Source: Escherichia phage vB_EcoM_G8
Sequence record: NC_054915.1
Length of the DNA: 64,000 nt
Reading direction: 5' to 3' (one strand)
The notes beneath the pieces were generated by a model. The model saw nothing but the letters and a program-made list of their open reading frames with translations. It was not told the DNA's origin and ran no database searches. The first letter of the stretch is position 1, and each line of letters opens with the position of its first letter. Below are positions 18,096 through 64,000 of this stretch, piece after piece. Position numbers and translations under genes: made by a program.

Positions 18096-18260
18096 TTACT
18101 CTTCTTTTTCTTTAGATTCCTCTTTTTTCTTTTTAGGAATCTGCTCAGGACCTTTATTTACTACAGCGCCTGATGTTGTTCCAGTAGAGATATTTTCAGG
18201 ACTACCGCCTGAATCTCCAGCGACCATATCTTCTTTGATAAATTCTTTATATGTTTTCAT
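18096..18260 (-). CDS. 61.1-like small acidic/lysine-rich protein (54 aa), not in track
   Basis: hand translation MKTYKEFIKEDMVAGDSGGSPEN...; coordinates approximate. Confidence 0.4.
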   Translation of the reverse strand: MKTYKEFIKEDMVAGDSGGSPENISTGTTSGAVVNKGPEQIPKKKKEESKEKEE

Positions 18261-61469: not shown

Positions 61470-61850
61470 TCAATTAGAAAATAAATTTATCCAAGATTGT
61501 TCTTTAATTAAAAATGGCTCAGAATCATATGCCATTAAACTCTGTGTGATTAGTCCTTTAAAAGGCCCATCAATAAATTCCATGGTAAAATATGGAATTT
61601 TATTCATTAGCCGTGCATTAGGAGCAGTACATAAAACTCTGCATCCTTTGAATACACCTTTTTGTAATTTGTATTGCTTGGGATAAAATTCGCTCAAAAT
61701 GTTATTATTTGCTAAAATTTCAAAATGATTCACCAATTTATTTTTAATAGTTTTTGGCGAAAAATAAAGATATTCGAAAAGCTGAGTGTCTGTCATCATT
61801 GCATTCCGATTACGAAAAACTGTGGACGAGTAATACCACCAATACAACAT
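61470..61850 (-). CDS. hypothetical protein
   Basis: 126-aa ORF. Confidence 0.5.
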
Positions 61851-62338
61851 TTAATATTACAGCAGCAGCAGTGTACAGTGTCAATATGGACACTATAAAT
61901 CTTATCCATATCAGGAGATTTGACAGGCTCATCAATTATATACAAAATTCGCGAAAGCGATAAACCTCTGAACTTGCTTCCTTTATTACCAATAAAACTG
62001 CGTACAGAATCAGTAAATAAACGAAAACGTATATCATCATTAGAATAACGCGAAAATTCCTTTTTAATGTTATTTGCAGAAATTTTAGCGTAAGCTGAAG
62101 TATTAGAAAGAACAATAACTGTTCCGCCATCATACAACCAATTAGCAGCAAAGTTAGTCACAGCAATTGATTTACCGGATTGACGTCCACCGTCTAGTCG
62201 AAGTGTGCAATACTGTTTAAGTAAGTCTTCAAATGGCGGGATATATTCGTTTTTACAAATTTCTTCTACTCTAGCATCAGAATGGTGTGTAAAAGCATTC
62301 ATCAGGGATAGATAAGGACCAGTTAAAAATGTTCTCAT
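61796..62338 (-). CDS. hypothetical protein with P-loop-like GGRQSGKS and C-terminal CCCC cluster
   Basis: 180-aa ORF. Confidence 0.5.
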   Translation of the reverse strand: MRTFLTGPYLSLMNAFTHHSDARVEEICKNEYIPPFEDLLKQYCTLRLDGGRQSGKSIAVTNFAANWLYDGGTVIVLSNTSAYAKISANNIKKEFSRYSNDDIRFRLFTDSVRSFIGNKGSKFRGLSLSRILYIIDEPVKSPDMDKIYSVHIDTVHCCCCNIKCCIGGITRPQFFVIGMQ

Positions 62339-62503
62339 TTCTTCTCTCTAAATTTGGGCCATTCCGTGGCGCATGAATTGTCCATTTCTGTATTTACCCA
62401 TTACCGCACTTGGGCTCGACCTTATTACAGGTTGGCGGGAATCCCTCATAGAATCATGAGGTCCAGGTTGTTCCCATTTTATTTGAATGTAAATAGGTCT
62501 GAG
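62339..62503 (-). other. GC-rich structured intergenic region (nested stem: GGGAA...CCUCAU-loop-AUGAGG...UUCCC)
   Basis: read directly; no ORF on minus strand; composition contrasts with AT-rich flanks. Confidence 0.5.
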
Positions 62504-63082
62504 TTAGGAATTACGGGCTGCATTAGCAACGGCGTAAGCGTACTGGACATTAGCGTCTTTAAACGTACCTTTAGAGGTATCTATTTCTGCCTTAAAGCCG
62601 CCTTTAGCCATAACATCGGCAAATTCTTTACGGAAAGCCATTGCATCAAGACCTTTCCATGATGATTTATGCTTGGCAAATTCAAGACCAGCGTAGTTGA
62701 CAGCCTTAGCTAATTTATTATCAATAACCCATTTACCGGCTTTAGGCACAAACTTCGGGCCTTTTTGTTTAGAGAACAGTTTTAAATTCCAGCGACGAAG
62801 GTCACTGTCGGCTTTAACAAAAGCTGCGTCTAAGTTACTAGCAACAACATCTTCAATATGGGCAAATTTAAGTCCGTCAACTTCAATATTTAGATCGTTA
62901 CGCCAGCGAAGTCCTTCCCAAGCGAAGGCTTTAAAGTCGGAAGCCTTTGTAGCTAAGTACCGTTCAATAGGAGCTGTTTTAGGGTCAAAGCCGTTTCCCG
63001 ATCGGTAGGTCCACTCATCTTTATTAATGCCTTTGGCCTTTACTATAGAAGCTTCGGCAATAAATTCTTGATAGGTTTTCAT
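62504..63082 (-). CDS. internal protein, IPIII-like, with N-terminal capsid targeting sequence
   Basis: 192-aa ORF starting MKTYQEFIAEA (CTS shared by T4 internal proteins). Confidence 0.75.
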   Translation of the reverse strand: MKTYQEFIAEASIVKAKGINKDEWTYRSGNGFDPKTAPIERYLATKASDFKAFAWEGLRWRNDLNIEVDGLKFAHIEDVVASNLDAAFVKADSDLRRWNLKLFSKQKGPKFVPKAGKWVIDNKLAKAVNYAGLEFAKHKSSWKGLDAMAFRKEFADVMAKGGFKAEIDTSKGTFKDANVQYAYAVANAARNS

Positions 63083-63143
63083 GTGTTTCCTTGTTTGTTT
63101 TGATAGAGTAATTATACCATATTAATACTTAAGCGTAAACCGT

Positions 63144-63404
63144 TTAAGCTTTACTGCCAGAAATAATTCCGAAGTTGTTAAAATCATATCCAATATCGTC
63201 AACATCTACTTTAGGACTTGCTACAACATAAGCAATTTCACTACGTTTTGCACAGGTGTTGATTTCTTTACCATCGCCACCTAAGAAAGAATACCCATTA
63301 CGTTTTAATGAGCCAAAGTCTTCCGCATCACCAATGAAAGCTTTAACTTTAAATTTAGAACCTCTGGCATCTGCTTCAACGATAAATTCTTGATACATTT
63401 TCAT
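63144..63404 (-). CDS. internal protein with capsid targeting sequence
   Basis: 86-aa ORF starting MKMYQEFIVEA. Confidence 0.7.
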   Translation of the reverse strand: MKMYQEFIVEADARGSKFKVKAFIGDAEDFGSLKRNGYSFLGGDGKEINTCAKRSEIAYVVASPKVDVDDIGYDFNNFGIISGSKA

Positions 63405-63410
63405 TTTTCC

Positions 63411-63524
63411 TTAGTAAATTGATTTACCAAAGTATTTGTACCAAGTCGGACGTTGATCAATTTTTTCATCTAAGCGTGCTTGATTTATCGCAATGGACGC
63501 TTCGGACGGGTCATAATTTCCTCC
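63411..63524 (-). pseudogene. denV: 3' remnant of denV (endonuclease V / pyrimidine dimer glycosylase), last about 37 codons only
   Basis: frame reads ...[37 protein letters not shown] matching remembered T4 EndoV C-terminus ...[38 protein letters not shown]; upstream part replaced by promoter sequence. Confidence 0.6.
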
Positions 63525-63541
63525 AAGTAGTTGATGAATGT

Positions 63542-63571
63542 ATAGTATCAAAACCCTTGGAGGAAGTAAAC
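63542..63571 (-). promoter_or_regulatory. T4-type early promoter immediately upstream of denV remnant
   Basis: plus strand atagta-18nt-gtaaac. Confidence 0.6.
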
Positions 63572-63573
63572 AA

Positions 63574-63855
63574 CTATTTTTCTGAAGCGCCTGAAATATA
63601 TTTTTCAAGACGTTGTTTCATCAGTGAGCCGTTCTTAGCGATTTCTTCCGGTTTATCGCACATACGCAACAAGGCTTCAAGCTTAACGATATCACTGGTG
63701 CGCTCAAATTTGCGAGTATCTATCTTACTAGCAAGTTCAGAAATACGTGCTAATAGACTTTCAGCTTCAACCAAAGCTGCACCTAGCTTAGTTGCAAATG
63801 TGTCAGTAGCTTCGTTAAGAATAGATTCTGATAAAAATTCACTATATGTTTTCAT
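63574..63855 (-). CDS. internal protein with capsid targeting sequence
   Basis: 93-aa ORF from [11 protein letters not shown]; ATGA overlap with stop of gene e. Confidence 0.65.
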
Positions 63856-64000
63856 ATATACGCTTTCCAAGTTCCTGTTTTAAATGTTGAGATTACGCGT
63901 TTCGCGCGATTAGGTGTCTGACGATACCATTTAGATTGGGCTAGATTTACTGCTGCTTCATCCCAGCGTTTTTGTTGGAGCATACGTAAAGAATTAGTAA
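63852..64000 (-). CDS. e: lysozyme e, C-terminal 49 codons (gene continues beyond window end)
   Basis: translation ...[47 protein letters not shown] matches remembered T4 lysozyme C-terminus. Confidence 0.85.

Follow-up and report, generated by a model that had tools for sequence, protein, structure and literature searches.

The window (the whole 64-kb stretch of DNA that was analysed) contains close to its end three small open reading frames (ORFs) situated between the lysozyme gene e and vs.8. After e, the order on the minus strand is a 93-aa ORF, a denV remnant, an 86-aa ORF and a 192-aa ORF. The features reported for this region by an initial annotation were all found in place, and all of them lie on the minus strand.

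61796..62449, minus strand: vs.8, which bounds the locus downstream, split into two ORFs
62504..63082, minus strand: ipIII orthologue of 192 aa, leader MKTYQEFIAE followed by A
63051..63082, minus strand: leader-coding repeat, copy 1 of 3 (other copies at 63373-63404 and 63824-63855)
63111..63140, minus strand: sigma-70-like promoter between the 86-aa gene and ipIII (GTTTAC, spacer of about 17-18 nt, TATAAT)
63144..63404, minus strand: 86-aa internal protein of the RB69ORF125c family, leader MKMYQEFIVE followed by A (PHROG 2667 'internal head protein', E 4e-19)
63411..63514, minus strand: 104-nt remnant of denV, where a 9-codon ORF now starts at the native ATG (63512-63514)
63518..63571, minus strand: PeSL-like cassette upstream of denV, with a -35 GTTTAC at 63566-63571 and the ribosome-binding site inside its 3' arm
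63574..63855, minus strand: 93-aa internal protein of the Ip5 family (PHROG 3499 'internal head protein', E 1e-46)
63852..64000, minus strand: 3' end of gene e, an ORF that matches the C-terminus encoded by T4 e and continues beyond the window end

The e segment has 98.6% identity to W143, 96% to RB69 and just 83% to T4, and its TGA stop codon overlaps, within the sequence ATGA, the start codon of the 93-aa ORF. At the other boundary, vs.8 is represented by a 33-aa N-terminal ORF (62348-62449) that matches residues 1-32 of T4 Vs.8, a protein of 219 aa, and by a 180-aa ORF (61796-62338) that is 97.8% identical to its residues 41-219. The 165-nt gap that separates the 3' end of ipIII from the 180-aa ORF corresponds to the detached N-terminal part of vs.8, and neither ARAGORN nor Rfam returned a tRNA or structured RNA in it. 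An exact match to the consensus late promoter TATAAATA was absent within the locus and was also missing upstream of T4 ipII and ipIII. Late expression would thus probably start from e promoters outside the window or occur by read-through.

Leaders and payloads of the three proteins

In line with the initial annotation, all three ORFs start with a decapeptide of the capsid-targeting type, followed by A in the 192-aa and 86-aa proteins and by S in the 93-aa protein. The motif greatly exceeds chance expectation: the pattern MK.[YF].[ED]F[ILVMT].[ED] has 4 matches across the six translated frames of the window, against 0 in 200 shuffles, and three of the four matches are the internal-protein ORFs. 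Positions 4 and 7 of the leader were reported to be important for targeting and positions 8 and 10 for processing (PMC9026906), and Y4, F7, I/L8 and E10 are kept in all three sequences, which supports that these are bona fide capsid-targeting leaders. The motif of the prohead protease gp21, (I/L)-x-E followed by a small residue, is present as IAE/A, IVE/A, LSE/S and LNE/A (the slash marks the predicted cleavage). At the DNA level, a repeat search delimited a leader-coding repeat of 32 nt whose copies are 84% and 72% identical. By analogy with T4 biology, the leader would attach each protein to the prohead's scaffolding core and gp21 would remove it after the (I/L)-x-E motif, while the mature proteins would stay in the head and enter the host with the DNA.

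The 192-aa protein had been called IPIII-like, and the assignment holds since it is 94.3% identical to T4 IpIII over its full length (PHROG 5341, E 1e-117). It is 100% identical in phages Phaginator and G8. T4 Ip3 inhibits the GmrS1/GmrSD2 type IV system of ECOR17 (PMC12373910), and on this strain IpIII is required and works in the cytoplasm without its leader (PMC9391042). By analogy, the 192-aa IpIII would act as T4 Ip3 does and block this two-gene GmrS1/GmrSD2 restriction system.

By sequence, the 93-aa protein is a member of the named Ip5 family. It can be aligned over its full length to T2 Ip5, with 48% identity over 84 aa (E 9e-22), and shows 89% to the VR20 protein 'ip5' and 92% to RB69ORF127c. 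The name Ip5, used for T2/T6, reportedly goes back to Repoila et al. 1994. Two candidate prohead-protease sites are present, LSE/S after residue 10 and LNE/A after residue 15, the latter being conserved in VR20, in RB69 and, as ITE/S, in T2 Ip5. The protein thus shares with Ip5 of T2/T6 (T2 LC348380 ip5; Bas37_0261) the PHROG family and the conserved (I/L)-x-E/(A/S) at residue 15, but it differs from T2 Ip5 by the extra LSE site at residue 10 and by its location, as the T2 gene belongs to the other Ip locus (57B–trna.4) whereas the 93-aa gene lies right behind e. In the RB69 copy of the protein, the leader is degenerate. The family was found in 233 records at a threshold of at least 95% identity, the exact 93-aa sequence is present on 541 contigs, and dN/dS ranged from 0.13 to 0.45. 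An AlphaFold2 model consists of three helices (pLDDT 72.7, pTM 0.35), for which Foldseek gave nothing significant against BFVD and PDB (best E 0.6 and 7, respectively).

The 86-aa ORF starts 6 nt past the denV stop. Its product is 91% identical to RB69ORF125c and 71% to an 87-aa internal head protein of VR20, and no difference of substance distinguishes it from RB69ORF125c or from the unnamed 87-aa 'internal head protein' of VR20/VR7. The RB69 gene lies immediately downstream of denV, the same position as in the window, whereas an ip10 gene intervenes between denV and the homologue in VR20. The family extends to 216 records, Salmonella phages among them, and dN/dS against VR20 was 0.22. AlphaFold2 gave an unusable model (pLDDT 45.6 on a 5-sequence alignment). 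A literature search returned no published function for the RB69ORF125c family and no paper mentioning RB69ORF125c or ORF127c. Three long repeat proteins (P0022, P0023 and P0026) that came up in a profile search with the 86-aa family were regarded as compositional or repeat artefacts.

Pfam and NCBIfam gave zero matches for the 93-aa, 86-aa and 192-aa proteins, and the PDB sequence search gave no match below E 0.1. The two short ORFs are neither T4 IPI nor IPII: BLASTP matches to T4 IpI/IpII are confined to the first 11-23 residues (E 0.005-0.15), so that similarity ends after the leader. The suggestion that the short proteins are novel has nevertheless to be abandoned, since RefSeq contains both the 86-aa and the 192-aa sequence in exact form (vB_EcoM_G8), annotated as internal head/virion protein, and both short proteins occur, exactly or nearly so, in hundreds of deposited phage genomes as 'internal head protein'. 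The locus is well known and the short proteins are catalogued family members.

The denV remnant and the joints between cassettes

The denV remnant that had been noted between the two short genes is indeed a dead, out-of-frame denV. Its promoter, ribosome-binding site and ATG are retained, and the new frame reads ATG ACC CGT CCG AAG CGT CCA TTG CGA TAA. The last ~34 denV codons survive out of frame (74% over T4 DenV residues 96-137; PHROG 1183, E 1e-7), and an intact ~137-aa DenV frame with the catalytic N-terminus was not found. Alignment with the intact denV of phage Lutter showed a 310-bp internal out-of-frame deletion, the junction of which lies within AATTATGACCCGT (63506-63518), a chimeric sequence derived from two 13-nt near-repeats. 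Exactly this junction was observed in 14 records from 13 phages. The gene was killed by a 310-bp deletion between 13-nt microhomologies, and such deletions are described in the literature as frequent in T4.

By definition, a PeSL is an early promoter that lies within a stem-loop between cassettes (Arbiol et al. 2010, PMC2839356; Comeau et al. 2014, PMC4122927). The T4 elements correspond to this definition, and so does the one that precedes the denV remnant in the window. The latter forms a perfect 10-bp stem, TTCCTCCAAG/CTTGGAGGAA (63556-63565 and 63518-63527), with a -10-like TACTAT in the loop and a fold energy of -20.7 kcal/mol (z -3.24), and the same promoter/stem-loop architecture precedes T4 denV, ipII and ipIII. 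In the spacer upstream of the window's ipIII (63083-63143), no hairpin above background was detected (fold z -0.60), and this spacer does not qualify as a PeSL. The intergenic stretch at this place is identical to the upstream region of the Ip10-like gene in W143 and RB69 and differs from the one that precedes ipIII in W143 or T4.

Cassettes would be swapped by homologous recombination, both at a ~50-nt repeat made of the ribosome-binding site and the leader-coding sequence and at the PeSL elements. Homology to RB69 and W143 spans 63518-63053 and ends at most 2 nt from the last ipIII leader codon (63053-63055). In T4 itself, ipII and ipIII have in common an identical 46-nt stretch of ribosome-binding site and leader. 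As judged from these alignments, crossovers fall in the ~50-nt repeat, and the best-resolved one thereby differs from what is known of PeSL cassettes in that it does not lie in the PeSL stem-loop. The module formed by the 3' part of e, the Ip5-like gene, denV and the 86-aa gene is 96% identical to RB69 versus 82% on the vs.8 side, a contrast that suggests lateral exchange.

Gene order among related phages

The initial annotation had given the T4 order as e, ipIII, ipII, denV, which is correct, and had on this basis described the cluster as rearranged. The order does differ from T4; the term itself is however T4-centred, given that the same order is widespread. The succession of e, an Ip5-like gene, denV and an 86-aa-like gene was found in RB69 (Mosigvirus), in VR20 (Gaprivervirus) and in many Tequatrovirus, and by this comparison the window layout is one of three common haplotypes, the alternatives being e–ipIII–ipII–denV as in T4 and e–denV–vs.8 as in Bas37. 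A longer version, e–Ip5-like–denV–86-aa gene–Ip10-like–ipIII–ipII–vs.8, is carried by W143; the haplotypes examined further included those of G4498, SHSML-52-1, RB69, VR20, Lutter, Bas45 and Bas47. An Ip5-like gene (at least 80% protein identity) is present in ~237 records and adjoins e in every sampled row, while the T4-type e-to-ipIII junction occurs in at most 215 records and the e-to-denV junction in at most 240. Bas37 and T4 have neither short gene at the e locus, T2 and T6 are likewise devoid of both there, and other phages carry different sets, as is the case for accessory genes.

That the order reflects an assembly error or a one-off rearrangement has nothing in its favour but the difference from T4 and can be regarded as refuted. 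Four independent isolates (B1.1, 235Ecol030PP, Phaginator and Shinka) carry the 1.7-kb stretch in colinear form at 97-99% identity, G4498 matches it in two pieces with one extra cassette, and the denV junction is shared as described above. In these comparisons, denV is best seen as a landmark between two cassette slots. The slot from e to denV would be empty or filled with an Ip5-like gene or, as in T4, with ipIII and ipII. The slot from denV to vs.8 would be empty or hold the 86-aa gene with or without Ip10-like, ipIII, ipII, Ip7 and other genes. Taken together, the region is read as the internal-protein locus between e and vs.8 ('ip2/ip3') of a Tequatrovirus; T-even phages have two such hypervariable Ip loci. 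We give a probability of about 0.8 to this reading jointly with the leader-bearing payloads, the common haplotype and the swapping of cassettes.

Possible roles of the short proteins

Injected internal proteins are the earliest-acting T-even counter-defence and they help to set host range, which is relevant to the choice of therapeutic phages. Each of the proteins Ip1, Ip2 and Ip3 inhibits its own variant of the GmrSD type IV nucleases, and the working hypothesis published for every protein of the two Ip loci is an anti-defence role (Silas et al. 2025, PMC12373910). The window proteins share with these T4 proteins the leader with its gp21 site, the genomic neighbourhood and a small size, but in the 93-aa and 86-aa proteins nothing except the leader resembles IpI or IpII. 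Bas37_0260, another small protein with a leader that is encoded by a cassette of a T-even Ip locus (the ipI locus), blocks McrBC (HIDEN-SEQ preprint, bioRxiv 10.1101/2025.11.20.689424), so that Ip targets extend beyond GmrSD. A kinship of Bas37_0260 with the 93-aa or 86-aa protein was rejected, as no sequence similarity was found past the leader. In the HIDEN-SEQ tables, the Ip5 gene of Bas37 shows a log2FC of -2.09 in a comparison that appears to be K-12 versus CFT073; its insertions may be polar on bas37_0260 further downstream, and 57B (bas37_0262), its neighbour on the upstream side, is depleted as well (-1.56).

By extension, the 93-aa and 86-aa proteins would most likely inhibit other first-line, DNA-modification-dependent nucleases. 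A more specific version, which we put forward only tentatively, is that one or both of them neutralise a first-line defence outside the 15 screened GmrSD groups, candidates being a further class of modification-dependent nucleases or a system yet to be recognised, and that the ~50-nt repeat of ribosome-binding site and leader would be a dedicated joint by which such cassettes pass between Tequatrovirus and Mosigvirus genomes. A literature search found no proteomic report on the presence of the 93-aa or 86-aa protein in virions. Since the locus, its variability and the anti-defence hypothesis are already in the literature and databases, the window leaves this picture unchanged. Few proteins without a known target are as widespread as those of the Ip5 and RB69ORF125c types, which makes these two reasonable next candidates. 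Their working may be compared with that of the phage P1 Dar proteins, which are said to be packaged in the head and co-injected to shield the incoming DNA from restriction. The Dar proteins are unrelated to Ips, use another packaging route, and are directed against type I rather than type IV systems.

It is rather unlikely that the short proteins are packaged for the particle itself, as core or scaffold accessories, DNA-condensing counter-ions or ejection aids, and not as inhibitors of defence. Such a role would accord with the slower head assembly and more numerous polyheads of T4 IpIII mutants (PMC9026906), and with an Ip5-like gene that is translationally coupled to e and 89-92% conserved across three genera, more as in a housekeeping function than in an arms race. 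Moreover, named ip4-ip10, a set that may not include the 93-aa and 86-aa families, gave no reproducible inhibition when screened against 15 GmrSD groups (PMC12373910). On the other hand, all four injected, leader-bearing proteins with a known target (Ip1, Ip2, Ip3 and Bas37_0260) are inhibitors of type IV restriction enzymes, and the short genes come and go among close relatives, Bas37 being devoid of both at the e locus. The predicted mature short proteins are also near-neutral (pI 6.3-8.1), in contrast to the basic T4 Ips (9.0-9.7), which argues against a role as DNA counter-ions.

Even less probable, to the point of being hardly credible, is that one or both of the short ORFs are cassettes in decay, with expression or packaging no longer at a useful level. 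Frameshifts or truncations affect the 86-aa gene in Lutter, in UFV13 and in several metagenomic copies, so that the gene is dispensable in some settings; it has no promoter of its own and relies on the denV early promoter alone, next to a denV that is already dead, and a dN/dS of 0.67 was obtained among close relatives. However, both short ORFs are intact in the window with complete leaders, and the dN/dS of 0.13-0.34 in deeper comparisons is taken as a sign of real genes. In addition, the profile search with the 86-aa family reached distant leader-bearing relatives in which motifs are conserved.

Gene order between e and vs.8

The final 2.3 kb of the window is filled by a minus-strand co-directional gene array of a T4-like phage:

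63852 to beyond 64000, minus: lysozyme gene e, 3' end; first in transcription order
63574-63855, minus: 93-aa ORF (Ip5-like, Ip5L); its ATG overlaps the e stop codon (ATGA)
between the 93-aa ORF and the denV remnant, minus: promoter/stem-loop element, 54 nt
63411-63514, minus: denV remnant
63144-63404, minus: 86-aa ORF (IP86), starting 6 nt past the denV stop
between the 86-aa and 192-aa ORFs, minus: sigma-70-like promoter
62504-63082, minus: 192-aa ORF
61796-62449, minus: vs.8; last in the array

The initial annotation gave the T4 order correctly (e, ipIII, ipII, denV; vs.8 follows) but described the present cluster as rearranged, while it is a common haplotype and not a private rearrangement. 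Over 1.7 kb, phages B1.1, 235Ecol030PP, Phaginator and Shinka are colinear with the window (97-99% identity), and the match in G4498 is in two pieces.

Haplotypes between e and vs.8
Bas37: denV only
T4: ipIII – ipII – denV
Lutter: Ip5L – denV – IP86 (frameshifted) – ipIII
G4498: Ip5L – denV remnant – IP86 – ipIII – 157-aa Ip
W143: Ip5L – denV – IP86 – Ip10L – ipIII – ipII
SHSML-52-1 (Mosigvirus): Ip5L – denV – IP86 – ipII
RB69 (Mosigvirus): Ip5L – denV – IP86 – Ip10L – ORF123c
VR20 (Gaprivervirus): ip5 – denV – ip10 – IP86L – ip7

In the simplest description, denV is a landmark flanked by one cassette slot on either side. T4 is unusual in that ipIII and ipII sit in the upstream slot. In Bas37 (KarlGJung; L015 4206-5323) the order is e–denV–vs.8 without any internal-protein gene between e and vs.8, and both slots can therefore be empty. 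By rough counts in a 50,697-record phage collection, the Ip5-like gene (>=80% protein identity) is present in about 237 records and adjoins e in every row listed. The T4-type e-to-ipIII junction occurs in at most 215 records and the e-to-denV junction in at most 240, both upper bounds as some matches are in two pieces.

T4 vs.8 codes for 219 aa. In the window it is broken in two, a 33-aa N-terminal ORF that ends in a stop and a 180-aa ORF that starts at the equivalent of T4 Met41, and the G4498 annotation shows the same division. This leaves two readings, a dispensable N-terminal extension or an annotated T4 start that lies too far upstream.

Leader-bearing proteins

The 192-aa ORF begins with MKTYQEFIAE and the other two with the same kind of leader. 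When the whole window is translated in six frames, a loose form of this motif turns up four times, against none in 200 shuffles, so the observation is real and not due to chance; the leaders of the three ORFs had been read correctly. In T4, the leader directs proteins to the core of the prohead; residues 4 and 7 matter for this targeting, and residues 8 and 10 for cleavage by the prohead protease gp21 (PMC9026906). All three proteins would be packaged, trimmed and injected, with cuts predicted after Glu10; the Ip5-like protein would probably be cut after Glu15, at a conserved LNE|A site. The leaders of two other Ip5-like proteins, RB69ORF127c (L006 1741-2022; MKTYMNFYQNLSLNE|A) and VR20 ip5 (L008 3001-3282; MKTYNEFLTVTTLNE|A), have diverged and lack Glu10, and from residue 14 on both copies are almost identical to the 93-aa protein of the window. 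At the sequence level, this suggests that LNE|A at residue 15 is the functional cleavage site of the family.

A fourth ORF with a perfect targeting-type decapeptide was found at 18096-18260 (minus strand; 54 aa, low complexity; MKTYKEFIKE|DMVAGDSGG...KKKKEESKEKEE). It is T4 gene 61.1 (T4 version MKTFKEFIKE...), directly upstream of the primase gene 61, and this region is kept in >300 T-even genomes. Since it lies in an early-gene region, its product may not be made at the time of prohead assembly; no mention of its leader was found in the literature.

Over its full length the 192-aa protein is 94.3% identical to T4 IpIII, of which it is the orthologue (PHROG 5341, E 1e-117). The 93-aa protein is of the Ip5 family: it hits PHROG 3499 'internal head protein' (E 1e-46) and shares 48% of its residues with T2 Ip5 (E 9e-22), 89% with the VR20 gene annotated ip5 and 92% with RB69ORF127c. 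The 86-aa protein falls in the RB69ORF125c family, being 91% identical to RB69ORF125c, 71% to a VR20 'internal head protein' and 63-68% to Salmonella phage homologues. A profile search retrieved more distant relatives of 94-194 aa that are also leader-first (MKTYNEFIAE, MKTFQEFINE, MKTYAEFLAE, MQTFHEFLVE) and have KNGY-F and DF--FG motifs in common. The two short proteins do not resemble T4 IpI or IpII beyond the leader. Both ORFs look like real genes, and their dN/dS is 0.13-0.34 in deeper comparisons.

The two short proteins had been put forward as candidate novel anti-defence proteins. The novelty does not hold: RefSeq already lists the identical 86-aa and 192-aa proteins for phage vB_EcoM_G8 as internal head/virion protein, and 541 contigs carry an exact copy of the 93-aa sequence. 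The locus and its variability had been described before, as had both short-protein families and the anti-defence hypothesis. The anti-defence role itself is one that we infer.

Pfam, NCBIfam and PDB sequence searches gave no match for the three proteins. AlphaFold2 yielded a three-helix model for the 93-aa protein (pLDDT 72.7), for which a structural search gave no significant neighbour, whereas its model of the 86-aa protein was too poor to use (pLDDT 45.6). Frameshifts or truncations of the 86-aa gene occur in Lutter (L002 3359-3614), UFV13 and the records of P0007-P0009, otherwise closely related phages, as would fit an accessory gene on which selection fluctuates. In addition, a 41-nt stretch of ipIII (62804-62844; ASNLDAAFVKADS at the protein level) is 76% identical to 63757-63797 within the Ip5-like gene, which could be chance or a trace of common ancestry of the payloads.

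The denV remnant and cassette exchange

Intact denV (414 nt, Lutter) has a 13-nt sequence at its start codon, AATTATGACTCGT, that nearly recurs around codon 104 as AATTATGTCCCGT. The window lacks 310 bp between these near-repeats and carries a chimera of both (AATTATGACCCGT). The loss shifts the reading frame, 310 not being divisible by three, and the native denV ATG now encodes MTRPKRPLR-stop. Since 14 records, representing 13 phages, share this exact junction, the deletion is an inherited or exchanged allele and not a sequencing error. T4 often undergoes deletions between 6-10-bp microhomologies (PMC9391042). The denV early promoter is intact and now directed into the 86-aa gene. The element containing it is a textbook PeSL, an early promoter embedded in a stem-loop (definition in PMC2839356); it has GTTTAC and a perfect 10-bp stem around the -10 region, and its 3' arm contains the ribosome-binding site (fold z -3.24). 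No hairpin was detected by the fold test at the promoter upstream of ipIII (z -0.60).

The leader-coding sequence forms a 32-nt direct repeat with three copies in the window and, together with the ribosome-binding site, a near-identical patch across ip genes (46 nt between T4 ipII and ipIII). From inside denV onward, the window is homologous to RB69 and W143 across IP86 and the spacer and for ten codons into the following gene. This homology ends at 63053, <=2 nt from the last ipIII leader codon. The spacer preceding ipIII is identical to the one that W143 and RB69 have before their Ip10-like gene, and not to the one preceding ipIII in W143 or T4. Taken together, this end point and this spacer make the array in the window equal to a W143-like array that has lost the Ip10-like payload by crossover within the ribosome-binding-site and leader repeat.

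The e(3')–Ip5L–denV–IP86 block (63053-64000) is 95.5-96.2% identical to RB69 DNA, with e only 83% identical to T4. On the vs.8 side the relation is reversed, at 82% to RB69 against 96% to T4, which gives a sharp mosaic boundary. This 96% against 82% identity to RB69, a Mosigvirus, indicates, on sequence grounds, a recent exchange of the block between genera.

Possible targets of the internal proteins

IpI inhibits GmrSD of strain CT596, Ip2 the BrxU-type GmrSD of ECOR21 and Ip3 the two-gene GmrS1/GmrSD2 of ECOR17, with no cross-protection among them, and ip4-ip10 gave no reproducible inhibition among 15 GmrSD groups (PMC12373910). Leaderless IpIII is still active in the cytoplasm (PMC9391042), and another leader-bearing protein, Bas37_0260, inhibits McrBC (bioRxiv 10.1101/2025.11.20.689424). 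The IpIII of the window would protect against ECOR17-type systems, and the 93-aa and 86-aa proteins may each neutralise some other first-line nuclease. The predicted mature forms of the short proteins are near-neutral (pI 6.3-8.1) and not basic, and no late promoter was found inside the locus.

The Bas37 gene bas37_0261 (L015 13864-14121) encodes a T2-type Ip5 that shares 48% identity with the 93-aa protein. In the transposon fitness tables for Bas37, insertions in this gene are depleted at a log2FC of -2.09 (q about 0; first host-comparison sheet, apparently K-12 vs UPEC CFT073; bioRxiv 10.1101/2025.11.20.689424). The neighbouring gene 57B is depleted too (-1.56), and a polar effect on neighbouring genes is a possible source of the signal. 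The depletion hints, on a point absent from the discussion of that preprint, that Ip5 matters on that host.
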